Below, piece after piece: positions 17,251-35,221 of a DNA stretch of 64,000 bases; position 1 is the stretch's first letter, and the number at the start of each line of letters is the position of its first letter. The stretch is from positions 7,270 to 71,269 of the forward strand of contig JAGASH010000001.1 in assembly GCA_017847835.1 (NCBI GenBank), in the 5' to 3' direction. Below the pieces are notes generated by a model. That model was given only the letters and a program-made list of their open reading frames with translations. It did no database searches and was not told where the DNA came from. The position numbers and the translations under genes were made by a program. The DNA comes from Oscillospiraceae bacterium. Its GTDB lineage: Bacteria; Bacillota; Clostridia; Oscillospirales; Ruminococcaceae.

Positions 17251-17293
17251 TTTGGCAAGCAAAAAAATTTGTGATTTTGCACAAATGCTATCT
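17251..17293 (+). repeat. Intergenic repeat, copy 1 (TTGTG-N6-CACAA core)
   Basis: tttggcaagcaaaaaaatttgtgattttgcacaaatgctatct is near-identical to 23024-23065. Confidence 0.7.
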
Positions 17294-17504
17294 TGTGTAA
17301 CTCCACTTAATCCTTGCGAAAGAGTTTAAAATCACGCATACGCTTATCCAAAAACAATTCAAATTGCAGTATATAAAAGAAAAGCAAAATAGTACTTTTG
17401 CGAGATGTGGTGTGAACAAAAATGAAAAAGTAATTGAAAAATTGCAGAATATGTGATATAATTATTATTGGATGATTGTAACCACAGCTCTGAAAGGGGT
17501 TTTT

Positions 17505-18392
17505 ATGAAATATACAACTGTTAAGCCTTTTATCAAGTGGGCAGGCGGAAAAAGCCAGCTCCTCAATGAGATACGGGCAAAGTATCCCGACAAGATAGAT
17601 AAATACTGTGAGCCTTTTGTTGGTGGCGGTGCGGTTCTGCTTGATGTCCTTGCAAACTGCCACCCTAAAGAGGTTCTGATTAACGATATTAACGCAGAGC
17701 TTGTGAACACATATATGCAGATTAAGAATAATGTTGACGAGCTGGTAAATCTTCTTTCAGATATGCAGGAGAGCTTTTGGGCAAAAAGTGATGCCGACCG
17801 CAAGGTTATGTATATTGCCAAGCGTAAGCGGTTTAATGACTTGAAGGTCAACGGCGATGATCAAGTCAACCTTGAAAAAGCCGTTTTGTTTATCTTCCTC
17901 AACAAAACCTGCTTTAACGGTCTTTATCGTGTAAACAGCAAGGGGCTTTTCAATGTTCCTATGGGCGCATACAAAAATCCGCCTATCTGCGATGCTGAAA
18001 ACCTACGACTTATCAGCAAACTCTTGCAGAACGTGCAGGTAAAATGTGGAGATTACAGCGAGTGTGCGGAGTTTATCGACAAGAACACCTTCGTCTATAT
18101 TGATCCCCCCTACCGTCCGCTTACCGCTACCGCTTCGTTTACCTCCTACTCCGAGAACGAGTTTGGAGATAAACAACAGATTGAGCTGGGAAAGTTTATT
18201 GATGATATTACTGCCGCAGGGGCAAAGGTAGTCGCAAGCAATTCCGATCCCAAAAACTCCGATACCGGTGATGATTTCTTTGATGATCTCTACTCGTCAT
18301 ATTCTATTTCAAGAGTATCGGCAAAGAGAATGATAAACAGCAAGGCAAGCAACAGAGGCAGCATAAACGAGCTGCTTATCTGTAATTTTTGA
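17505..18392 (+). CDS. dpnM: Dam/DpnM-like N6-adenine methyltransferase (GATC)
   Basis: VKPFIKWAGGKSQLL, YCEPFVGGGAV, LINDIN, FNGLYRVN, YIDPPY. Confidence 0.92.
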   Translation: MKYTTVKPFIKWAGGKSQLLNEIRAKYPDKIDKYCEPFVGGGAVLLDVLANCHPKEVLINDINAELVNTYMQIKNNVDELVNLLSDMQESFWAKSDADRKVMYIAKRKRFNDLKVNGDDQVNLEKAVLFIFLNKTCFNGLYRVNSKGLFNVPMGAYKNPPICDAENLRLISKLLQNVQVKCGDYSECAEFIDKNTFVYIDPPYRPLTATASFTSYSENEFGDKQQIELGKFIDDITAAGAKVVASNSDPKNSDTGDDFFDDLYSSYSISRVSAKRMINSKASNRGSINELLICNF

Positions 18393-18401
18393 GGTGGTAG
18401 T

Positions 18402-19265
18402 ATGACTGAAAAGAGAAATTTTGCTGACTGGCTTTCAAAGTTTCGCAGCAGCATAGCCAACTACGGTTACTACATAGATTTCGACAAGGTTTACCGCAAT
18501 GTCAACGACATCAAGGTTGAGCTTAACATCTTAAACTCCCTCATAGGTTCAAGGAACATTGAGGACGAATTCAAGAGCATTCTTGCAAAGTACCCCGAAA
18601 CGCTGAAATGTATCCCGATTTTGCTTGCTGTAAGAGCAAACGAGATTTACGCTATCGACGGCGATGGCGAGTTTACATACGATTTCAAGAAAGCAAACCA
18701 CCCCACCGACGAGTATGTGGTGTTTATGAGGAAAACGGGCTTATTTGACTTGCTCCAAAATCATATCATCAGCAATCTTGTTGACTATGTAACTGGCGTT
18801 GAAACAGGGCTTGACTCCAATGGTCGCAAGAACCGTGGCGGTCATTTGATGGAAGACTTGGTTGAAAGCTATATCAGAAAAGCAGGCTTTGAAAAGGGCA
18901 AGACCTATTTCAAGGAGATGTATATTCACGAGATTACCGAGAAATGGGGCATTGACCTTTCAGCTATTTCCAACAGCGGTAAAATGGAAAAGCGTTTTGA
19001 TTTTGTTATCAAGACCGATAGTTGCATTTACGGCATTGAAACGAATTTCTATGCAAGCGGCGGCTCAAAGCTGAATGAAACAGCACGAAGCTATAAGCAG
19101 ATCGCACAGGAAGTTGCTACTATTGACGGCTTTGAGTTCGTATGGTTTACCGATGGACAAGGCTGGACGAGTGCAAGGCACAACCTTGAAGAAACATTTG
19201 ATGTTACGGAGCACATTTACTCTATTGATGATTTGGAGAATGGAATAATTTCAAAATTACTCTAG
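18402..19265 (+). CDS. dpnB: DpnII/MboI-family type II restriction endonuclease
   Basis: DYVTGVETGLDSNGRKNRGGHLME, KRFDFVI, ETNFYASGGSKLNETARSY, FVWFTDGQGW. Confidence 0.92.
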   Translation: MTEKRNFADWLSKFRSSIANYGYYIDFDKVYRNVNDIKVELNILNSLIGSRNIEDEFKSILAKYPETLKCIPILLAVRANEIYAIDGDGEFTYDFKKANHPTDEYVVFMRKTGLFDLLQNHIISNLVDYVTGVETGLDSNGRKNRGGHLMEDLVESYIRKAGFEKGKTYFKEMYIHEITEKWGIDLSAISNSGKMEKRFDFVIKTDSCIYGIETNFYASGGSKLNETARSYKQIAQEVATIDGFEFVWFTDGQGWTSARHNLEETFDVTEHIYSIDDLENGIISKLL

Positions 19266-19276
19266 GGGAACGAAAA

Positions 19277-19801
19277 ATGTATACAAAACAAAAACATAAT
19301 GTTTTTATTAGTTTCTATCATGCCGATGATCAGAAATATAAAAATTATATTGATAAATTTCTAAGCAAAAATATTATTAATAAATCTGTGGTTGCAGGAG
19401 AGTATAATCCGGATAATAGTGATGAATACATTAAAAGGCTTATACGTGAAGAGAAAATCACTTCTTCATCTGTTATAGTTGTTTTAGTTGGTCAAAATAC
19501 CAAGAAAAGAAAGCATGTGGATTGGGAGATATATGCTGGGCTCGATGAAAACATAAATGGCAACTCTGGTCTGATTGCAGTTATGCTCCCTTCTATTAAC
19601 AAAACACCGAATGGAGGCTACTATTACAGAGATATGCCACAGCGTTTAGCAGATAATGTAAGAACTGGATATGCATCTATTTATGACTGGGAATATGCAG
19701 TAAGAAACTTTGATAAAATAATTGAGATAGCATTTGAGAATAGAATAGTAAAAAAGGCTTTACTAGATAATAGCAGGAAACAGATGCGACGTAATTTGTA
19801 A
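19277..19801 (+). CDS. TIR-like protein (ThsB / MTH538-DUF1863 type)
   Basis: KHNVFISFYHADD, SSVIVVLVGQNTKKRKHVDWEI. Confidence 0.85.
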   Translation: MYTKQKHNVFISFYHADDQKYKNYIDKFLSKNIINKSVVAGEYNPDNSDEYIKRLIREEKITSSSVIVVLVGQNTKKRKHVDWEIYAGLDENINGNSGLIAVMLPSINKTPNGGYYYRDMPQRLADNVRTGYASIYDWEYAVRNFDKIIEIAFENRIVKKALLDNSRKQMRRNL

Positions 19802-19815
19802 GAGGAGTATAATAA

Positions 19816-20445
19816 ATGAATATCTTTTATATAAAGCTTGACGAGTGGAATACAATACTAATATCAATTAACTGGATTGCATTAATTGTTTTGATTGTTT
19901 TGATTTCATTTATCGCTTTCTTGACAAAGAAAGCTGTAAAATATGCGCGAAAAAAAAGAATGATAATTGAGGAGATTACCCTCGGGATTGGTAATAATAG
20001 TTTAAAACTTACCTATAATGAAAAGGATCGTGAAATAGCATACAAGATATGGGTTGAGCTCACTACGAGAAAAGTTGGAATAGATTTTGAAGAAGAAAAT
20101 GATGTTATTGTTGAAGTGTATAATTCGTGGTATAATTTTTTTAAAACAGTAAGAGAACTTATGAAGGATGTTCCATCAGCTCAAATAACTAATTCACAAA
20201 ATTTGATTTCCCTCACTGAACAAGTTTTAAACAAGGGATTAAGGCCTCATCTTACAAAATGGCAAGCAAAGTTCCGAAAATGGTATGAAAATGAGTCAAA
20301 AAAAGAAGAAAACTCATACTGCACACCGCAAGAGCTCCAGAGGAAATATCCAGAATACATTGCACTTGTAAAGGATTTGCTGGAAACCAACAAAAGAATA
20401 ATTGCTTATAAATTATTATTGCAAAAGATAGCATTTAAAGAATAA
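19816..20445 (+). CDS. Hypothetical membrane-anchored protein, 209 aa
   Basis: One N-terminal TM (NWIALIVLIVLISFIAFL) then a helical domain; tightly coupled to the TIR genes. Confidence 0.7.
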   Translation: MNIFYIKLDEWNTILISINWIALIVLIVLISFIAFLTKKAVKYARKKRMIIEEITLGIGNNSLKLTYNEKDREIAYKIWVELTTRKVGIDFEEENDVIVEVYNSWYNFFKTVRELMKDVPSAQITNSQNLISLTEQVLNKGLRPHLTKWQAKFRKWYENESKKEENSYCTPQELQRKYPEYIALVKDLLETNKRIIAYKLLLQKIAFKE

Positions 20446-20448
20446 GGG

Positions 20449-21657
20449 GTGATTTCATTGTCGGGAGTAACAAAACATATTTATGATCATGAAATAAGGG
20501 ATATTCATTCAATGTGGAATCAGGAAATAAAGAGCATTTCTGCATTGCTTCCCAAAGAATATACATTTTATGATGTTGTTGCGTTGTTAAAAAAATACTA
20601 TCCACATGAATGGAATTCTGTACAATTCAAATATGAATACTATAAGAAAAAGGACCAATATTTAAAGCGTAGATTTGGTAAGGCTCGTTATAATATGAAG
20701 TCTGCAGAAGTTCTCCTGCAATCTAATCCAGAATGTCGTAAAATAATGTCTAAAAAATTTATGAGAAATCATAGTGATAAATTTAATGATTTAGAATCTC
20801 AGAAAGCAGAAACTGCATTATGGGCAAAGCGAGAACCGAAGATTAATCGTATCAATTCAAAAATAGAATTAGCAAAATCAAAAACACAGCAGGTAACTCC
20901 TGAATTCATTGATAAGTTAATAGGTTTGTATAGTAGAAAAAACACAAGTCAGAAAGACAAGGTTTATATAATCTATGAATTGAAAAAATATTATAACAAA
21001 AAAGTGATTAATTTCTTTTTTAAGCAGAATGACACTGAAATCAACAAACAACTACGATTGATAGCTTTTTATCATTTGCAAAGCTTTAATTATCAGCCGA
21101 GATTAAGAAGACAAAAATATATGCAAATACATAAAAAAAATAAGAAGAAAAAGAATTATCTTAAGTATGAATATGCCAATCAACAATATACACTTCTCCA
21201 GAATCCGCAAGAACTTGAATATCGAATTGAAAACGGTCCAGAACAGAAAATAAAAGAATATGATTACTTTATTTCGCATAGCAGCATGGATAGTTCTGCC
21301 GTTCAACAATTGATAATTTATGAAAACAGTTTGGGAAAATACATTTTCTGTGACTGGATAAATGATGCAGATTATTTAAAGCGCCATTTAGTTTGTGATG
21401 CAACTCTAAAAGTCATTGAAATGAGATTGGAAAAATCGAAATCATTGATATTTGTTAAATCTGAAAATTCAATGTCATCTATTTGGTGTAAATATGAGTT
21501 GAATTACTTTAATGAATTAGGCAGGCCAATCTATGTAATAAACAAAGATGAAATTGAGAATGCAAATTTTTCAATGAAACTTATGGATAAAAATTTATTC
21601 TTAGGTCCAAATTTTAAAGCGCTTGCATTATTTAACAGTAACAAACCTTGTGAGTAA
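20449..21657 (+). CDS. Hypothetical protein with C-terminal TIR domain
   Basis: Lys-rich N-terminus; C-terminal YDYFISHSSMD...IFCDW...SIWCKYELNY. Confidence 0.8.
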   Translation: MISLSGVTKHIYDHEIRDIHSMWNQEIKSISALLPKEYTFYDVVALLKKYYPHEWNSVQFKYEYYKKKDQYLKRRFGKARYNMKSAEVLLQSNPECRKIMSKKFMRNHSDKFNDLESQKAETALWAKREPKINRINSKIELAKSKTQQVTPEFIDKLIGLYSRKNTSQKDKVYIIYELKKYYNKKVINFFFKQNDTEINKQLRLIAFYHLQSFNYQPRLRRQKYMQIHKKNKKKKNYLKYEYANQQYTLLQNPQELEYRIENGPEQKIKEYDYFISHSSMDSSAVQQLIIYENSLGKYIFCDWINDADYLKRHLVCDATLKVIEMRLEKSKSLIFVKSENSMSSIWCKYELNYFNELGRPIYVINKDEIENANFSMKLMDKNLFLGPNFKALALFNSNKPCE

Positions 21658-21673
21658 TATAGGATACAACGCA

Positions 21674-22417
21674 ATGAAAAAAATCACCAAATGGCAACCC
21701 GACGATTTTGAGCTTGAAATGACCACCCACTGGTCATTCCCCAAGCGTGGCGATTGGGCTACCCACGACGCAAAATGGCGAGGAAACTGGTCGCCGTATA
21801 TTCCGAGGAACATCATTCTCCGCTACTCGCAAGAGGGGGATTTGGTTCTCGATCAGTTCGCAGGCGGCGGGACAACGCTCGTTGAAGCGAAACTACTCAA
21901 CCGTGATATTATCGGCATTGACATAAACAATGTTGCTCTTGAACGCTGTCGGGAAAAGGTTGACTTTGATTACGAACCAGCAAAAGGTAAAGTGTATATC
22001 AATCAAGGTGACGCTCGCAACCTCGACAAAATTCCCGATGAGAGCATCGACCTAATCTGCACTCACCCGCCCTATGCTGACATAATCAAGTACAGCAACG
22101 GCATTGATGGGGATTTATCACAACTGAAAGTCAAGGATTTCCTTGAACAGATGAAACCGGTTGCACAAGAATGTTTCCGTGTCCTGAAGAAAGGCAAATT
22201 CTGCGCTATCCTTATGGGCGATACTCGTCAAAAAGGGTGTATGATACCGATGAGCTTTGATGTGATGAAGATTTTTCAAGGTGCTGGCTTTACACTCAAA
22301 GAGCTTATCATCAAGGAACAGCACAACTGTAAAGCTACGGGTTATTGGAAAACTAACAGTGTTAAGTATAACTTCCTGCTGATTGCACACGAGTATCTTT
22401 TTGTTTTCAAAAAGTAA
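21674..22417 (+). CDS. Second DNA methyltransferase (N4/N6 type; DpnA-like role inferred)
   Basis: LVLDQFAGGGTTLVEA, IGIDIN, LICTHPPY. Codon style resembles dpnM/dpnB. ATG at 21674. Confidence 0.85.
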   Translation: MKKITKWQPDDFELEMTTHWSFPKRGDWATHDAKWRGNWSPYIPRNIILRYSQEGDLVLDQFAGGGTTLVEAKLLNRDIIGIDINNVALERCREKVDFDYEPAKGKVYINQGDARNLDKIPDESIDLICTHPPYADIIKYSNGIDGDLSQLKVKDFLEQMKPVAQECFRVLKKGKFCAILMGDTRQKGCMIPMSFDVMKIFQGAGFTLKELIIKEQHNCKATGYWKTNSVKYNFLLIAHEYLFVFKK

Positions 22418-22489: not shown

Positions 22490-22945
22490 ATGATGAATGA
22501 AATTTGCAAAGAAACGCAAGAATTGTGCTGCTGTCTTGACGAAAGAACGCAGATTTTGATGGCAGACGGCATGAGGAAAGAAATCTGGAAAATCACTATT
22601 GGAGATTACATATTCTCCGCAGATGGAAAATTCTGCATGGTGGAAAATATTATGCAGAGTAGGGAGGAAAACTGCCTCAAAATAAGCTGCGAGAACGGTT
22701 TTTCCGTTATCGCAACATCCGAACACCGTTTTTTGACGACGCAAGGTTGGATAACCGCTTCCGCAATTAGTTCTGATACAATGCTGCTGGACGAGCTTAA
22801 TAATCCGGTTCGTGTTGCCCGTATAGATAAAAAAGATGAAACACATAATGTGTTCAATCTGCTGTTTAAGTCGCCGACAATTCTTATAGCAAACGGCTTG
22901 CAAAGCGGAGATTTTGCTATACAGAACGGTCGTATGCCCGAATAA
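22490..22945 (+). CDS. Stand-alone Hint (intein-like) domain protein
   Basis: CLDERTQILMADG (block A), ATSEHRFLTTQGW (block B TxxH), VFNL...IANG. Confidence 0.8.
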   Translation: MMNEICKETQELCCCLDERTQILMADGMRKEIWKITIGDYIFSADGKFCMVENIMQSREENCLKISCENGFSVIATSEHRFLTTQGWITASAISSDTMLLDELNNPVRVARIDKKDETHNVFNLLFKSPTILIANGLQSGDFAIQNGRMPE

Positions 22946-22967: not shown

Positions 22968-23002
22968 GTTTCGCCCCGAGTTAATTCTTGGGGCGTTTTT
23001 TT
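22968..23002 (+). terminator. Terminator after the Hint gene
   Basis: cgccccgag ... cttggggcg followed by a T-run. Confidence 0.6.
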
Positions 23003-23023: not shown

Positions 23024-23065
23024 TTTGGCAATCAAAAAATTTGTGATTATGCACAAAAACTATCT
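23024..23065 (+). repeat. Intergenic repeat, copy 2
   Basis: tttggcaatcaaaaaatttgtgattatgcacaaaaactatct. Confidence 0.7.
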
Positions 23066-28035: not shown

Positions 28036-28944
28036 ATGGAAAAACATAAAATATGGGCTCCAATAGATAAGGTTGAACAAGAGAAGTATCTATATCATTA
28101 TACTTCTTTTGAAAACGCATTAAAAATCCTTTACCATAATACATTGAAATTTTCAAAGTTGAGTGCTTCCAATGATTCATTTGAGCGGAAACCCAAAGTT
28201 AAGTTGGATTGCAAAGATTTAAAGTTGCATCAAATATATTCGTATATCCATGATGGCTTGGAAAAAATTAGATGCAATATAAGAATTCTATGTTTTTCAA
28301 CAGATGCTGACTATGATAAGATTAAAAGTCAATATGTGGAAATGAACTCGTTATTTTCAAAAGATATGATTAGAGAAAATGTGTTGGGGCGAGGATTTGC
28401 ATTGCCAAGGATGTGGGCCCAATATGCAGACAACAATCATGGTGTTTGTTTAGTTTTTGATAAGAAAAAGATTGAAGATTGTATAAAAAAATGCCAAATT
28501 AATTTTTATGGTCAAAATGTAGAATATAAAGCTTATTACCAACCTATTATAATAACAGAAAATCAATTGGATCAAATAATAAAAGGAATTAATACGAACC
28601 CGTTGGATTTTGTAAAACAAATTTCAACAAGCGACTTCAATTATATAGTGTACAACTATTTTACCAAACTTGATGATTGGAGTAGTGAGAACGAATTTAG
28701 ATATATAACATTTAGTGACAGTTCTATTGAGGGTGATGTAGAAATTTCTTCAATTTCATCTGCTCTTTGCGGTATTGTAATTGGTGAAAGAATGGGCGAT
28801 GTTGAAAAATACATTTTAGAATTACTGTTAGCAGATGGATTTAATGAATTACAATTGAAGCAGATTGTTTTTGAAGACTTAACAACTAGAATAAAAGCTA
28901 TCCCTTGTTCGAGTAAAAAGAAAGGAAGTGCGGAGTATGTCTAA
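28036..28944 (+). CDS. DUF2971-family protein
   Basis: YLYHYTS, NDSFE, ILCFS, MWAQYADNNHGVCLVFD, WSSENEFRYI. Confidence 0.82.
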   Translation: MEKHKIWAPIDKVEQEKYLYHYTSFENALKILYHNTLKFSKLSASNDSFERKPKVKLDCKDLKLHQIYSYIHDGLEKIRCNIRILCFSTDADYDKIKSQYVEMNSLFSKDMIRENVLGRGFALPRMWAQYADNNHGVCLVFDKKKIEDCIKKCQINFYGQNVEYKAYYQPIIITENQLDQIIKGINTNPLDFVKQISTSDFNYIVYNYFTKLDDWSSENEFRYITFSDSSIEGDVEISSISSALCGIVIGERMGDVEKYILELLLADGFNELQLKQIVFEDLTTRIKAIPCSSKKKGSAEYV

Positions 28945-30439
28945 AAATAGAAAAAACAGAAAAGAACCGGCGTATCTCAGAAATTTTACTAGAGATGTTT
29001 TACAAAGAAAAATATGGCTCGAAGAAAGCTATGCAAAAGAACACAGCAATACTATCGATGGCTTAAAAGTTTTAACGGAAACTTTAAATAAATACATTCA
29101 AGATTTGAATCTTGAAATTTGTAGGAATATTCCTTACATATCATTAAAGCCAACTACCGGAGCGGATGATGCGGTAAGAATGTTTATTAGACAGCAAGCA
29201 CAATTTGATGAGCCAAGTTTTATGCTTCAGATTGGAGAGCATTATATTGGTCTTACCCATTTTATTGATTTGTTTGTAAGTGAAGGTGTTTTTGAACTTG
29301 ACCATCCTTCAAATGAAGTTTTTGATGCAGAAATTATTTTCAATTCAGACTATACTAGAATGGTCATTATTGATATCTTTCTTGATGTTGCGATGTTTAA
29401 TTCATATTCCTTTCTTCGCGATGCAGATACTGAAGAAAAACAAGCTTTTAGTAAGAAAAAATATGAGTATTTTAGGAGTCATCATTTATCCACTTGCTTT
29501 GATGAAGTTGGTGAAAACCTTGATTATTATTCATTTGCATTTTCTTGCCATGACATATCCGAAGAAACCACTTTTTCGATCAACCTTGAGAAGTATAGGA
29601 ACATTTGGGAAGACTTTATCCATGAGTATTATCCCAATTCTGTCCACAAAGAAAGACCGATTGAACAACAACTTAAAATGAGAGTGGACAAACATTTGCC
29701 AAGTGATTACCACAATGAGTTTGATGATAAAGAACCCGGTATTTATTTTGTGCTTAGATTAAATAGAGCAGATTTGTCTCCTGATATTCATGGACAACTT
29801 CTTCCAATTCTGGGTGGAAAAGATGTGGGGTTTTCTAACCTTAAAATAGTAACTAAAACTGAACTAAGTAAATATGGAAAATTATTAAGGGAGTTGTATA
29901 TCTCTGCATTCAAAGTCGTAAAACAAGAAAAAGACAGCATAAAAAGTGTCGCTAAAAATGAAGAAGCAAAGCCCCAAAAATCGGGAAATAATCACTGTTA
30001 TAAAATAGCGGTTTCTTTTACTTCAAAATATCGGGAAAAATATGTTGAGCCGTTTTGTAATGCGTTGCTCAAATTAGGCTATTCGAAAGATGACATTTTT
30101 TATGACAATTGGCATAAAGTACGTTTTAATGGACCAAACGGCGGCGAAATTATGCAGAATATATACAAGAATGATTGTAGGATGATAGTTGTTCTGCTTT
30201 CCCCCGATTATATTGAAAGAAGGTGGACAGGAATAAATGAATGGCCCGTGATAGAAGGACTCATTAATTCAAGACAGTCAGATAAAATTTGTCTTTTGAG
30301 TGTTGATTCTGTTGATTTGGAATCCATAAGCGCTTATATTAAAACATATGGCATTGTTGAAGATGTTAGTAATATGCGTCCTGATGAAATTGCCAAATTT
30401 ATTAACGATTTCTACAACGACAGAATTATTAGCCACTAA
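28937..30439 (+). CDS. Hypothetical protein with C-terminal TIR domain
   Basis: YKIAVSFTSKYRE...IFYDNW...VVLLSPDYIERRWTGINEW. Confidence 0.8.
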   Translation: MSKNRKNRKEPAYLRNFTRDVLQRKIWLEESYAKEHSNTIDGLKVLTETLNKYIQDLNLEICRNIPYISLKPTTGADDAVRMFIRQQAQFDEPSFMLQIGEHYIGLTHFIDLFVSEGVFELDHPSNEVFDAEIIFNSDYTRMVIIDIFLDVAMFNSYSFLRDADTEEKQAFSKKKYEYFRSHHLSTCFDEVGENLDYYSFAFSCHDISEETTFSINLEKYRNIWEDFIHEYYPNSVHKERPIEQQLKMRVDKHLPSDYHNEFDDKEPGIYFVLRLNRADLSPDIHGQLLPILGGKDVGFSNLKIVTKTELSKYGKLLRELYISAFKVVKQEKDSIKSVAKNEEAKPQKSGNNHCYKIAVSFTSKYREKYVEPFCNALLKLGYSKDDIFYDNWHKVRFNGPNGGEIMQNIYKNDCRMIVVLLSPDYIERRWTGINEWPVIEGLINSRQSDKICLLSVDSVDLESISAYIKTYGIVEDVSNMRPDEIAKFINDFYNDRIISH

Positions 30440-30503
30440 ACACCTTATTGTGGACAATAATAAAACTTCAATTGAAGGAAGCATTGTTTTATGGAGGTAT
30501 AAA

Positions 30504-31184
30504 ATGGGCAGAAAAATTTTTGTATCTTACAAATACGCTGACGATAGTGTAAAGGACCTTGGCAATTGTACTTCAACAGTAAGAGACTATGTTGATAAAT
30601 TTGTGAATATGGTCAATTCAACAATGGATATTTATAAAGGGGAGAACGATGGAGAGGACCTAAGTGACTTGTCTGATGATACTATTTGGGAAAAGCTCAA
30701 GGATAGAATATATGATAGCTCGGTCACTATTGTTTTTATTTCACCCAATATGAGAGAAAAAGGTAAAAGGGATAAGTCACAATGGATTCCGTGGGAGATA
30801 TCATATTCTCTGAAGGAAACATCAAGAAGAGATAAAAGTGGAAAGTCGGTTAAAAGTAAAACAAACGCGATGATTGCAGTTGTGCTTCCTGATAAAAACG
30901 ATGATTATTCATATTATCTCCAAGAAAACATCTGTTGTTCGTCGCGGTGTGTTACACATAGAACAAAGAAACTATTTCAAATATTGAGGGACAATAAATT
31001 TAACCTTAAAAATCCGCGTCAATCTGATTGTGATAATGGCAAAGTAATTTGGCATGGAGACGCATCGTATATCGAAGCGGTGAAATGGTGCGACTTTATA
31101 GAGGATTATAATAAATATATTGACAAGGCGGTAGAAAGGCAAAAAAATCAAGACAATTATGACATCATTACAGAGATTAAATAA
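30504..31184 (+). CDS. thsB: Thoeris ThsB-like TIR protein
   Basis: MGRKIFVSYKY, SSVTIVFISPN, WIPWEISYSL; directly upstream of thsA. Confidence 0.85.
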   Translation: MGRKIFVSYKYADDSVKDLGNCTSTVRDYVDKFVNMVNSTMDIYKGENDGEDLSDLSDDTIWEKLKDRIYDSSVTIVFISPNMREKGKRDKSQWIPWEISYSLKETSRRDKSGKSVKSKTNAMIAVVLPDKNDDYSYYLQENICCSSRCVTHRTKKLFQILRDNKFNLKNPRQSDCDNGKVIWHGDASYIEAVKWCDFIEDYNKYIDKAVERQKNQDNYDIITEIK

Positions 31185-31235
31185 GTGAATAGTTTATAAT
31201 AAATCGCGAGATTTTCTAAGGAAAGGAATGCTTTT

Positions 31236-32681
31236 ATGGATAATGAATTATCGGCATTTATAACCAGATATGTAAAGGAAATTCAAAACAATAATGCTGC
31301 TGTTTTTATTGGGGCAGGTCTCTCTAAAGACGCGGGATTTGTTGATTGGAAAAGCTTATTGGAAAATATGGCGAGCGAATTACGCCTGGATATTTCTAAA
31401 GAGCAAGACCTGGTTGCATTAGCTCAATATTATTGTAACGAAAACGGCAGCCGAAGTATAATAAATGATACAATATTTGAAGAGTTTTCTCGAGAAAGCG
31501 GAATAACCGATAATCATAGGATATTAGCACGGTTACCTATAACCACTTATTGGACAACGAATTATGATACTCTTATTGAGGACGCTTTAGGGGAAGCTCA
31601 GAAGGTTGTTGATGTAAAATACAATAATTCCCATTTTTCTATTACCAAACCTCAAAGAGATGCCATTGTCTATAAAATGCATGGTGATAAAAGCTTGCCG
31701 AATGAAACGGTAATCATAAAGGACGATTACGAGAAGTATTACCGTGACCATGCTCCATTTCTGACTGCTTTAAGCGGAGATTTAATTTCCAAAACATTTT
31801 TGTTTTTGGGATTTAGCTTTTCCGATCCTAATATTGATTACATACTCAGTAGGGTTAGGATTGATTATGGCAAAGAATGTTCAAAGCAGCATTATGCAAT
31901 TATGAGAAATGTACAAGAATCTGATTATCCCGATAATAAAGCCGATTTTGAATATGCAAAGCGCAAGCACGAGCTGTTTGTCTCCGATCTAAAGCGGTAT
32001 AATATCAAGGTGTTGTTAATAGATGAATATGCTGGAATAACTGATATTTTGCGTGAAATTGAAAAGCGTATAAATCGAAAGAACATCTTTATTTCCGGAA
32101 GCGCTGCAGAATATGGAGAATTTACTGAAAAAGAGGCTTCTGAATTCATACAGTTGTTGAGCAAATCTCTTATTCAAAAAGGGTATAATTTGATCTCGGG
32201 ATTTGGTTTGGGTGTTGGAAGTGATGTTATAATCGGAGCTTTAAGCCAAATTTATATGGGCAGTAAAACCATAAATAAAGACAGACTGCTTTTGCGTCCA
32301 TTTCCGCAGGGAATAGAAAACGATGATACGCGCAAAAAACTATGGTCTAAGTACAGGGAGGATATGATTTCAAGAGCTGGCATATCAGTATTCATGTTTG
32401 GAAACAAGAAAGACAGAACGAGCGGAAATGTTGTTAATGCGAGCGGTGTTGAGGATGAATATGAAATTGCAAAACAGAACGGTAATCTAATCATTCCGAT
32501 TGGCTGCACCGGGTATGTTGCAAAAGAAATTTGGAACGAAGTTTTGGAAAATCTCGATGATTTTTACCCCGGAATAGACAGCGAACAATTAAAAAGTGCA
32601 TTTTACAGCTTAAATAATAAATGCGTTCTCGAAAAAATAGTTCAGAACGTGGTTAATTTTATTGTTTTGATTAGCCAGTAG
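31236..32681 (+). CDS. thsA: Thoeris type I effector ThsA (SIR2 NADase + SLOG)
   Basis: VFIGAGLS, WTTNYD, YKMHGD, FLGFSFSDPN (SIR2); IFISGSA, LISGFGLGVG (SLOG/STALD). Confidence 0.92.
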   Translation: MDNELSAFITRYVKEIQNNNAAVFIGAGLSKDAGFVDWKSLLENMASELRLDISKEQDLVALAQYYCNENGSRSIINDTIFEEFSRESGITDNHRILARLPITTYWTTNYDTLIEDALGEAQKVVDVKYNNSHFSITKPQRDAIVYKMHGDKSLPNETVIIKDDYEKYYRDHAPFLTALSGDLISKTFLFLGFSFSDPNIDYILSRVRIDYGKECSKQHYAIMRNVQESDYPDNKADFEYAKRKHELFVSDLKRYNIKVLLIDEYAGITDILREIEKRINRKNIFISGSAAEYGEFTEKEASEFIQLLSKSLIQKGYNLISGFGLGVGSDVIIGALSQIYMGSKTINKDRLLLRPFPQGIENDDTRKKLWSKYREDMISRAGISVFMFGNKKDRTSGNVVNASGVEDEYEIAKQNGNLIIPIGCTGYVAKEIWNEVLENLDDFYPGIDSEQLKSAFYSLNNKCVLEKIVQNVVNFIVLISQ

Positions 32682-32763
32682 AATGTATATGTCAGAGCAT
32701 TTTCTTTGCTATTTCTGTATGGATTAAGGCAATAATCATGATATTTTAGGAGGATATTTTACG

Positions 32764-33348
32764 ATGTTTATAAATAAGGAAATGTTAAGAGAAAGAGTAA
32801 TTTTGGAGCATTCTGAATTTACAAATTGGGAAAACAGAATTTTTATTGAGAACAGACAGCTTTATAACAGAACAGATCAATACGATCTTTTTTTGTCACA
32901 TAGTTATTTAGATAAAGACTTGGTCTATTCTCTTGTTAATCTTTTTAATAAAGCCGGATATAGTGTATATGTTGATTGGATGGTGGACACGCAGCTTGAT
33001 AGGTCAAAGGTTAATGCCGATACAGCTGATCAGCTGCGTACGAGAATGAAGATGTGTAAAGGACTTGCATATGTTTCAACTACTAATATCACACAGTCCA
33101 AATGGTGCCCTTGGGAGTTAGGTTATGTAGACGGAAACAAGAACGGACGCTGTGCGATTATGCCTGTTTTGGAAACAAATGCCGGAAGCTTTACGGGGCA
33201 GGAATATCTTGGATTATACCCCTATATTGATTATGCAGAAGTTGGAAATAGTAATAAGTATGAATTTTGGGTTAATGATCCTAGTGATAAGAAAAAGTAT
33301 GTTAAATTAAGTGATTGGCTAAAGGGAGTTGATCCGCATAACCATTAA
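32764..33348 (+). CDS. thsB: Second ThsB-like TIR protein
   Basis: YDLFLSHSYLD, YSVYVDW, SKWCPWELGY. Confidence 0.85.
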   Translation: MFINKEMLRERVILEHSEFTNWENRIFIENRQLYNRTDQYDLFLSHSYLDKDLVYSLVNLFNKAGYSVYVDWMVDTQLDRSKVNADTADQLRTRMKMCKGLAYVSTTNITQSKWCPWELGYVDGNKNGRCAIMPVLETNAGSFTGQEYLGLYPYIDYAEVGNSNKYEFWVNDPSDKKKYVKLSDWLKGVDPHNH

Positions 33349-33889
33349 TAGAAAAAGCTTTTTAAAGAGTGGAATATACTTACACCTATATCTATTATGA
33401 CTTGAATTAATGTCGAGATATTTCGCAATACCACTGCCGGAGTGATTAACAGCATATTTTGCCCCAGGGATTGTCCTGGGGTAATTTTTCGACTACTTTT
33501 GTGCACGAAAATCAAAAGGCCGAAATGCGTTTTTGATATTCACCAAATCTTTACGAGCCATTTTTTCACACGTGTTGTATTTTTCGCTTTTTTTAAGAAG
33601 ATAGTCATATTAGGCCTAATATGTCTTGCGCTACTCTTTTTTGGAATACACCAGCCGGATTAAAAAAGCTTTATTGACAGAATGGGTTATATTCCCAAAA
33701 ACATGAACACAATATAATTGCAACAAAAAATATACAAGAAGCAGGCAATTCTGGTCTATTTTTGCAGAAAACGCTCTCAAAATATCATATTTTCTTTCGT
33801 TTTTGTTATTTTTTATAACATTTTTTGAAAAAACTATTGACATGATAAATGTTTTTATATATAATTGTATTATAGAAAGGGTGATTAAT

Positions 33890-35221
33890 ATGTTCACATA
33901 TCTGAAACTTCACAATTTTAAGTCCTTTGGAAATATTGAGTTTAATTTCAAAAAAACAAAGAAGGAAACGAAGAAATTTATTGCCATCTATGGAGAAAAT
34001 GGATGCGGAAAGACAAATTTTGTCAGTGCATTTGAATTCCTTTATTCTTCTATGACGGCATTTATGATGAGAAAAGCTTTTGAACAAGTTTTTTCAAATA
34101 GAAGTGAAGACAAAGCATTTACCCCTTTTGCTGAAGCAATTAGGAATAGTATTGTTGACTTTTCGGATTATAGGATGCTGGAATGCACAGAACCAACAGT
34201 TGTTGAATACGGCTTTGAGCACAATGGTACAGATGGCTACTATAAGATTGTGTTCACTGACAGCATAATTGAAGAAGAACTGTATCATCTTATTGGTACC
34301 AGGCGTGGTAAGCTTTTTTCTGTAAAAAAGAAAGATAATGATATTGATATTATAATCAACAATTCGACTTTTTCCGCTGAGTATAAGCAAGAGTTTGAAA
34401 AAGAATTAAAAAAATACTGGGGAAATAATTCCTTTGTGAGCATTTTTTTTAAAGAGCTCAGCGAAAAAAACAAGCTATATATTGATGAAAATGTTTCAAA
34501 ATTATTTACAGAGATAATGATGTCTTTTTTGAATACAGGTGTATTCAAAGTGCAGGATTTAGATATCGGCTCAGTGTTAAGAAAGATAAAATTTCCTGGT
34601 CGTGTTAGACTTATTTCGGCTTCCGGTATAACTGATCCCGACGGTGAAACTGTTCTTGATGAAAATGCTGAGATTATCCGCACCTATTTTACACAGATAT
34701 ACTCAGATGTAAGAAATGTTTATTATGAAAAGAACAAGTATGAGGACCGTATTGAATATAAGCTGCATATTCAAAAGATGATTTCCGGTAAGGTTCGTGA
34801 TGTACTTTTTGATTATGAATCCACAGGAACTAAAAAAACACTTGAGATAATCAACGCAATGGTAGGCGTAATGAATGGCGCTACAGTAATCTACGATGAG
34901 ATTGATGAAGGCATTCACGACCTTCTGATGAAATCAATTGTATCCTCACTTAATAACAGCGCAAAAGGTCAGCTCATAATCACAACCCACAATACCCTGC
35001 TTCTTGAAACAATCGACCCTCAGTCTGCATATGTTATATATGTGGATTGCGATGGCAATAAGGAGGCGCGCTGCTGCGCTGATTACGGAATCAGGGTTCA
35101 AAAGACCAATAATATGCGTAATCAATATCTTAAGGGAATGTTTGGAGGAATTCCTTATGCATCTGACATCGACCTTTCGTACATGACATTTGAGGATGGC
35201 GGTGATGCGGTTGAAGAGTAA
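33890..35221 (+). CDS. AAA/ABC-type ATPase (RloA / AbiLi / AAA_21-like)
   Basis: LHNFKSF, YGENGCGKT, ESTGTKK, IYDEIDEGIH, QLIITTHN. Confidence 0.88.
   Translation: MFTYLKLHNFKSFGNIEFNFKKTKKETKKFIAIYGENGCGKTNFVSAFEFLYSSMTAFMMRKAFEQVFSNRSEDKAFTPFAEAIRNSIVDFSDYRMLECTEPTVVEYGFEHNGTDGYYKIVFTDSIIEEELYHLIGTRRGKLFSVKKKDNDIDIIINNSTFSAEYKQEFEKELKKYWGNNSFVSIFFKELSEKNKLYIDENVSKLFTEIMMSFLNTGVFKVQDLDIGSVLRKIKFPGRVRLISASGITDPDGETVLDENAEIIRTYFTQIYSDVRNVYYEKNKYEDRIEYKLHIQKMISGKVRDVLFDYESTGTKKTLEIINAMVGVMNGATVIYDEIDEGIHDLLMKSIVSSLNNSAKGQLIITTHNTLLLETIDPQSAYVIYVDCDGNKEARCCADYGIRVQKTNNMRNQYLKGMFGGIPYASDIDLSYMTFEDGGDAVEE

Follow-up and report, generated by a model that had tools for sequence, protein, structure and literature searches.

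We conclude that three AT-rich genes set in a DpnII-like restriction-modification (R-M) operon of an Oscillospiraceae bacterium very probably constitute a type VI Thoeris anti-phage system with two sensors. The genes lie in a 64,000-nucleotide stretch of DNA (GenBank assembly GCA_017847835.1, contig JAGASH010000001.1, positions 7,270 to 71,269 of the forward strand), which is referred to below as the window and whose own numbering is used throughout. They encode a 174-amino-acid (aa) TIR protein (ThsB1), a 209-aa membrane protein (ThsG), and a larger protein with a C-terminal TIR domain (ThsB2). A first-pass annotation of the window had already described a TIR signal generator with a membrane effector at this position, and this make-up agrees with the homology of the two proteins to ThsB and to the transmembrane (TM) form of ThsG. 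The annotation also called the system uncharacterized, while allowing that it might match one already named. It does match one, as the TIR-174/TM-209 pair is homologous to type VI Thoeris (50% and 45% identity). The cassette is a new copy of a known system in an unusual place, not a new system, and only its embedding and its second sensor are unusual.

The six genes of the operon are as follows.

17505..18392, + strand: M1, dpnM-like Dam-family (D12 class) N6-adenine DNA methyltransferase (PF02086, 8e-66; TIGR00571 dam, 5e-87; PADLOC MTase_II, 1e-97)
18402..19265, + strand: R, DpnII-family restriction endonuclease, dpnB-like (PF04556 DpnII, 5e-113; PADLOC REase_II, 9e-104)
19277..19801, + strand: thsB1, 174-aa ThsB-type TIR protein (PF08937 ThsB_TIR, 1e-20)
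19816..20445, + strand: thsG, 209-aa single-pass membrane protein, predicted effector (homology to validated ThsG; AlphaFold2 model)
20458..21657, + strand: thsB2, probable accessory ThsB of 399 aa (PADLOC ThsB PDLC00426, 4e-118, full length)
21674..22417, + strand: M2, dpnA-like N6_N4 DNA methyltransferase (PF01555, 4e-27; PADLOC MTase_II PDLC03376, 1e-143)

Homology to a validated type VI system

Thoeris was recently extended to types I-XI (Yirmiya et al., bioRxiv 10.64898/2025.12.03.692087, December 2025 preprint). In that work, the TIR domain of Ga0209396_100023224 is classed as a type VI ThsB (Table S1), and the effector of the Ga0209396 pair is listed as "DUF6650 and TM," type VI, with defense of Escherichia coli against SECphi18 (Table S2). 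The system arrests growth specifically upon addition of the cyclic ADP-ribose (cADPR) isomer 2'cADPR, and an AlphaFold 3 model of its ThsG is a hexameric ring in which basic pockets lie between the protomers (bioRxiv 10.64898/2025.12.03.692087). The same system has served as a 2'cADPR-dependent reporter, in a report that terms ThsG "a membrane-spanning protein" (bioRxiv 10.64898/2026.06.15.732069, June 2026).

A 21-residue peptide of the type VI ThsB from the first of these papers was back-translated and scanned over Joint Genome Institute (JGI) metagenome contigs, which returned the scaffold Ga0209396_1000232 itself (locus L098) and one twin. On this scaffold the ThsB gene (405-965) runs into the next gene (956-1600), which encodes 214 aa with one TM helix. 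ThsB1 and the validated ThsB, Ga0209396_100023224 (L098:405-965), share 50% identity (E 2e-59), and the motifs RKHVDWEI and RLADNVRTGY are common to both. The 209-aa protein matches the product of L098:956-1600 at 45% identity over 209 of 214 residues (E 1e-63). Because both proteins are homologous to the validated pair, we assign the pair at 19277-20445 to type VI Thoeris. By analogy with the published homologue, ThsB1 is predicted to be a 2'cADPR synthase and phage sensor, and its putative catalytic residue, Glu84, is kept in the sequence HVDWEI. As the first-pass annotation had it, the cassette holds no SIR2, Macro, or caspase effector.

Some observations weigh against this interpretation. 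An identity of 50% between the TIR proteins leaves room for a product other than 2'cADPR. The label given to the effector also does not fit: the authors of the preprint call ThsG DUF6650 (PF20355; bioRxiv 10.64898/2025.12.03.692087), and PF20355 gave no match, up to E=10, to the window ThsG, to 52 + 72 relatives, or to the validated TM-type ThsG, while hhalign of the ThsG family against true DUF6650 proteins from two genomes gave a probability of 0.3%. We therefore rejected Pfam DUF6650 membership of the window ThsG, which failed the gathering-score test and has no HMMER or hhalign similarity to the family. The mismatch does not bear on type VI membership, because the validated TM-type ThsG fails PF20355 too; the assignment is independent of the Pfam label, as its basis is the homology of the window pair to that of the validated TM-type system. 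ThsG and DUF6650 are linked only weakly, in a language-model comparison, by ESM Atlas clusters of which 13% of members carry PF20355, and TM-type ThsG and soluble DUF6650 may be of one fold. In practical terms, TM-type ThsG is invisible to the Pfam DUF6650 model, so that Pfam-based counts would miss the family.

True DUF6650 genes were viewed in two Bacillota genomes. One (L015) is next to genes for a TIR protein of 308 aa and a DUF4391 protein, and the other (L016) follows a gene for a 424-aa SNaCT14-domain protein, with no TIR gene. Based on the latter context, DUF6650 may also work with non-TIR partners.

Conservation of the ThsB1-ThsG pair

We surveyed 80 genome loci from Bacillota, Pseudomonadota, Planctomycetota, phyla of the candidate phyla radiation (CPR), and archaea, and a ThsG-like gene was called in 78 of them. 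In the first contexts viewed, this gene was always found among TIR genes. Across the 78 loci, a ThsB1-like TIR gene lies directly upstream in 45 (median gap, -1 bp) and directly downstream in 10, so that it is the immediate neighbor in 55; it lies within four genes in a further 13 and was undetected in 10, four of which are at contig ends. These counts indicate that the conserved core is a two-gene unit of a TIR protein and a membrane protein. Most of the pairs have no R-M gene alongside.

Some relatives sit in larger arrangements. Longer operons (L005-L008, L019, and L028; e.g., L005:2888-7802) encode a 151-aa TIR protein, Nmad2, HMUDK_hel, a thymidylate-synthase-like protein, a ThsG-like protein, and a TIR protein, and those of L005-L008 come directly after MutH/Dcm/DpnII-MboI R-M genes. 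In L001-L004 (e.g., L001:4871-9957), the ThsG-like gene stands beside a gene for a TIR+SLOG (type IX-like) protein.

The predicted effector, ThsG

The 209-aa protein has no match in Pfam, PADLOC, or NCBIfam, and PADLOC v2.0.0 holds no model for either TM-type or soluble ThsG. It nonetheless belongs to a large family without annotation, comprising >2,100 clusters at 90% identity and 589 representatives at 50%, and the TM-type family spans bacteria, CPR, and archaea. The identification thus removes a false lead to a new system: the pair of a TIR protein and a single-pass membrane protein, blank in Pfam, NCBIfam, and PADLOC v2, is type VI Thoeris.

An AlphaFold2 (AF2) model of ThsG built on 52 homologues (predicted local distance difference test score, 92) has a short N-terminal hairpin, a TM helix at residues ~20-46, a Lys/Arg-rich stretch, a second hairpin, and a helical bundle at residues 69-207, which by the positive-inside rule should be cytoplasmic. 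Foldseek comparison of the model with PDB gave nothing below E 0.5, and comparison with AlphaFold Database clusters and the ESM Atlas gave unnamed relatives only. Among 72 family members, the invariant or nearly invariant residues are mostly basic or aromatic (R85, K86, R113, R143, H145, W149, R154, and W156).

ThsG is also predicted to associate with itself. A model of a four-copy complex scored 0.52, against 0.00 for the best control; the mark set for this score is reached by 20 of 30 proteins solved as one-chain pairs and by 1 of 23 solved as a single chain, a calibration that is only roughly valid for the custom alignment and four copies used here. The modeled interface is head-to-tail, with residues 69-100 and 161-172 placed against residues 109-159, and it includes the family-conserved R85, R113, K152, and W156. 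Such an interface fits a ring with ligand pockets between protomers, as far as a model can indicate.

A TM-less relative is encoded in L013/L014 (7760-8245). This 161-aa protein is 27% identical to the cytoplasmic domain of ThsG (E 1e-9), its gene comes after ThsB1- and ThsB2-like genes, and Pfam DUF6650 misses it too. From its sequence, this protein resembles a soluble version of the effector.

A probable second sensor, ThsB2

Based on its sequence and its gene neighborhoods, the 399-aa ThsB2 is probably an accessory, second ThsB of the same system. It comprises an N-terminal domain of ~260 aa and a C-terminal TIR domain with catalytic Glu347 in CKYELNYF. In the alignment of the family the pattern FISHS...W..E is invariant, and the window protein keeps it as FISHS...W..YE, the last residue being Glu347. 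A structure search of the Atlas recovered the N-terminal domain from ThsB-like proteins and from a small number of short proteins that belong to no Pfam family, with no recognizable fold outside these two groups. A search of 400 other sampled genomes of the phylum did not find the ThsB2 family.

Where ThsB2 homologues do occur (44-75% identity), they accompany ThsB1 and ThsG in three gene orders: B1-G-B2 in L017, L018, and L029; B2-B1-G in L021 and L022; and, in L013/L014, B1-B2 followed by the TM-less, distantly ThsG-like protein described above (B1-B2-G'). A 29%-identical relative of ThsB2 also lies near the ThsG-like gene in L001-L004. No ThsA homologue was found in a search within 6 kb of the ThsB2/ThsG loci. 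Because ThsG recurs alongside ThsB2 and no ThsA is nearby, ThsG is the likeliest partner, which makes the cassette a two-sensor Thoeris. Systems with multiple ThsBs exist in other Thoeris types (bioRxiv 10.64898/2025.12.03.692087).

The TIR domain of ThsB2 does not fit this pairing as well, since it is closer to type-I-like ThsBs, with 33% identity to the ThsB at 32764-33348. The first-pass annotation had suggested that the TIR proteins of the cassette might be additional sensors serving the ThsA at 31236. ThsB1 is unlikely to have this role, because the type VI signal, 2'cADPR, does not activate the ThsA of Bacillus cereus (bioRxiv 10.64898/2025.12.03.692087). For ThsB2 the suggestion survives as an alternative, in which this protein would make 3'cADPR for the type I ThsA (SIR2-SLOG) 9.6 kb downstream and only ThsB1 would serve ThsG. 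Besides the likeness of its TIR domain to the type I ThsB, the best PADLOC models for ThsB2 are labeled ThsB1|ThsB, a complete type I Thoeris is present in the same island, and one TIR cluster can serve several effector types, with types V and IX also using 3'cADPR (bioRxiv 10.64898/2025.12.03.692087). However, ThsB2 homologues are directly beside ThsG-family genes in at least nine distinct other loci, in three orders and with no ThsA within 6 kb, and in L058, L063, and L064 short TIR proteins from the same type-I-like clade are encoded directly after ThsG-like genes. We consider it unlikely, therefore, that ThsB2 works for the type I ThsA, and we favor its role as a second sensor for ThsG.

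Insertion into the R-M operon

The surrounding genes have the composition of a DpnII/MboI-like type II M-R-M system of putative GATC specificity, with a DpnII-family endonuclease, a D12 methyltransferase, and an N6_N4 methyltransferase in one operon. In other genomes, homologues of M2 (73-86% identity) directly follow the endonuclease gene. The order dpnM-dpnB-dpnA is contiguous in at least 14 of 19 related loci, where the R stop codon abuts or overlaps the M2 start (e.g., TAATG), and it is exactly at this R|M2 junction that the window carries 2.4 kb of low-GC DNA. Because relatives are uninterrupted at the junction that holds this DNA, the cassette has been inserted into an ancestral M-R-M operon. 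The lower GC content that the first-pass annotation noted for the inner genes is evident: GC is 0.29-0.32 in the three cassette genes versus 0.42-0.45 in the three R-M genes, and GC at third codon positions (GC3) is 0.25-0.29 versus 0.49-0.51. One candidate for an empty-site variant, a contig joint 19205>21695 (run X7), has a depth of 2 and 21 nucleotides (nt) on one side and was not relied on.

The composite has been kept. The same six-gene arrangement occurs beside a serine recombinase in an Oscillospiraceae metagenome-assembled genome (MAG) and in a second MAG (L017/L018), with R-M proteins 83-93% identical and Thoeris proteins 75-81% identical to those of the window. The cassette is thus retained in at least two MAGs, and also in pig and sheep gut metagenomes; contigs from pig and fecal metagenomes span R, the cassette, and M2 at 95-98% identity. 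Relative to L017/L018, the ratio of nonsynonymous to synonymous substitution rates (dN/dS) is 0.02-0.11 for all six genes, values that are approximate as dS is saturated. The cassette is under purifying selection.

These data bear on whether the cassette might be an inert passenger, carried by the R-M module or a mobile element and providing no defense in this host. Its composition is foreign, and half of the operons that were tested heterologously gave no defense (bioRxiv 10.64898/2025.12.03.692087). Nevertheless, none of the three cassette open reading frames (ORFs) is disrupted, they retain the catalytic Glu residues and the residues of ThsG that are invariant in its family, and the dN/dS of the cassette is 0.06-0.11 against a relative with 75-81% identity. 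We regard an inert cassette as very improbable and, by analogy with the published homologue, expect that it provides defense.

It is tempting to ask whether the embedding reflects a functional link. The cassette could be wired to the DpnII-like enzymes as a guard that fires when restriction is blocked or evaded, like PrrC within EcoprrI. Such coupling would account for the presence of the cassette at the same junction inside the operon in diverged relatives under purifying selection; there are precedents in PrrC, embedded in a type IC R-M locus, and TgvAB, embedded in a type I R-M operon; and ThsB2 has an N-terminal domain without assigned function. Yet the same ThsB1-ThsG pair mostly occurs without an adjoining R-M gene, two genes, without DpnII, are enough for the validated homologue to work in E. 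coli, and a permissive insertion site with linked transfer explains the embedding equally well (Payne et al., bioRxiv 10.1101/2024.01.29.577857). Because most pairs lack an R-M neighbor and the validated homologue works alone, we consider functional coupling highly unlikely. We likewise give little credence to more specific versions, in which the N-terminal domain of ThsB2 senses phage escape from, or inhibition of, GATC restriction, or in which ThsB2 bridges the type VI and type I systems via a second signal. Our preferred explanation remains a type VI Thoeris system that inserted into the operon and is inherited along with it.

The neighboring junction of the operon, M1|R, is a second embedding slot. 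In L017 (3237-4574; also in L010/L011), a gene for a 445-aa protein without a Pfam or PADLOC match lies between dpnM and dpnB, and L018 has an 85-aa ORF there.

Operon layout and transcription

The co-orientation of the six genes on the + strand, in the order dpnM-dpnB, TIR, TM protein, C-terminal-TIR protein, and second methyltransferase, is as first annotated. So is the start of dpnM, an ATG at 17505 preceded by the ribosome binding site AAAGGGG, which yields 295 aa. The third cassette gene does encode a C-terminal TIR domain; its length was given as 402 aa, whereas the likeliest start is the TTG at 20458 (399 aa), because homologues begin with MSGVTK. The likeliest start of M2 is the ATG at 21674 (247 aa). 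With the revised starts, the gaps along the six genes are 9, 11, 14, 12, and 16 bp, which accords with the few base pairs originally noted.

The following features flank the operon.

17262..17293, strand not assigned: first copy of a 32-nt repeat with a palindrome (core TTTGTG-N6-CACAAA), followed ~170 nt downstream by the dpnM promoter
17434..17462, + strand: promoter-like site before dpnM (TTGAAA, 17 nt, TATAAT, with an upstream TG as in an extended -10; 11/12 matches; consensus match only)
22490..22945, + strand: 151-aa ORF between dpnA and the terminator, with a ribosome binding site seen (sub-threshold Hint/intein-like matches: PF05203, 6e-7, below gathering score; PT-HINT, 8e-5)
22972..22995, + strand: hairpin resembling an intrinsic terminator, with a 9-bp stem (7 G-C pairs) and a T7 tail; first such site on this strand past the promoter
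23034..23065, strand not assigned: 32-nt repeat, copy 2, 91% identical to copy 1, just past the terminator and upstream of a LytTR operon

A scan of the + strand between the promoter-like site (17434-17462) and the hairpin (22972-22995) revealed no other terminator-like site. As dpnA lies downstream of the cassette with no terminator between, co-transcription from the R-M promoter is the simplest arrangement, and from the sequence we consider it most likely that the cassette is now transcribed in this way. Two points tell against it. Promoter-like sites also occur inside the AT-rich cassette DNA, and the only evidence of transcription consists of two short contigs, 100% identical, in one pig-gut metatranscriptome, which could be contaminating DNA. 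These contigs match the start of thsB1 and part of thsG and are a weak hint of expression.

The 151-aa ORF at 22490-22945, in which no domain was detected beyond the sub-threshold Hint/intein-like matches, may be the final gene of the transcription unit. The two copies of the 32-nt repeat bracket the whole operon, and the repeat may be a shared operator.

The defense island

The region is a defense island on a mobile element, with serine recombinases, a broken ADP-ribosyltransferase gene, a complete type I Thoeris accompanied by additional TIR proteins, and an AbiL-like ATPase. The latter two are located as follows.

30348-31184: type I Thoeris ThsB
31236-32681: type I Thoeris ThsA
32764-33348: type I Thoeris ThsB
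33803-35221: AbiL-like ATPase, after the type I Thoeris genes

The type I genes are preceded, at 28036-30439, by genes for a DUF2971 protein (PADLOC PDC-S31) and for a protein of 503 aa whose C terminus weakly matches TIR. With type I (3'cADPR) and type VI (2'cADPR) Thoeris and five TIR proteins in one island, the region offers a natural case for the study of signal specificity and cross-talk.

Proposed mechanism

Based on these features, the system may operate as follows. ThsB1, and probably ThsB2, would sense phage infection, and their TIR domains (Glu84 and Glu347) would turn NAD+ into a cADPR signal, which for ThsB1 is predicted by homology to be 2'cADPR. The signal would bind the cytoplasmic helical domain of ThsG, which would assemble head-to-tail into a ring with the conserved Arg, Lys, His, and Trp residues at the protomer interfaces. 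Activated ThsG would then damage the membrane or otherwise arrest growth, as the published homologue suggests, so that the phage cycle is not completed. As for its origin, the cassette probably arrived as foreign low-GC DNA exactly at the R|M2 junction of the M-R-M operon, on a mobile element, and the composite would since have been inherited as one six-gene module.

Comparison with known systems

The closest described counterpart is the validated type VI system with TM-type ThsG on Ga0209396_1000232, from metagenomic Gammaproteobacteria. In both, a short TIR gene lies directly upstream of a gene for a ~210-aa, one-TM protein, with a tight junction, and both effectors have an N-terminal TM helix and a helical cytoplasmic domain. 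The window copy differs in having the additional 399-aa ThsB downstream and in its setting, within a type II R-M operon on a mobile element of an animal-gut bacterium, whereas the reference is a two-gene unit beside an insertion sequence (IS)-type transposase. The soluble DUF6650 ThsG of Bacillus-type type VI systems shares the system type and the effector name given in the preprint, as well as an adjoining TIR gene (L015), but it has no TM helix and no HMMER or hhalign similarity to the window ThsG.

The type I Thoeris in the same window (30348-33348) is similar in its TIR-domain ThsB sensors, in having several ThsBs per effector, and in signaling by cADPR isomers. However, 3'cADPR activates its effector, a soluble NADase, and the effector of the cassette is instead a membrane protein of another fold. 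We rejected a type I assignment for the cassette, which contains no ThsA with SIR2 and SLOG/STALD domains; the ThsA at 31236-32681 has its own ThsBs. Type II Thoeris (TM and Macro domains; His-ADPR signal) resembles the cassette in combining a small membrane-anchored effector with a TIR sensor. This type was also rejected, as the cytoplasmic domain of ThsG is all-helical rather than an alpha/beta Macro domain, with no Pfam Macro match and no PDB match at E<0.5.

With regard to its location, the cassette is comparable to embedded defense genes, which have been surveyed in Hma, BREX, DISARM, and type I R-M systems (Payne et al., bioRxiv 10.1101/2024.01.29.577857). PrrC, embedded in the type IC R-M system EcoprrI, and TgvAB, embedded in a type I R-M operon (PMC11411939), are examples. 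In all of these cases, a second system in the same orientation lies between genes of the host defense operon and travels along with it. Type II systems are outside the scope of the survey, and Thoeris does not appear in its main text. The host operon in the window, unlike the surveyed Hma, BREX, DISARM, and type I R-M hosts, is a three-gene type II DpnII/MboI-like operon. A Thoeris cassette in such an operon is a modest extension of known embedding; it indicates that three-gene type II DpnII-like operons can host defense cassettes at gene junctions, like type I R-M, BREX, and Hma.

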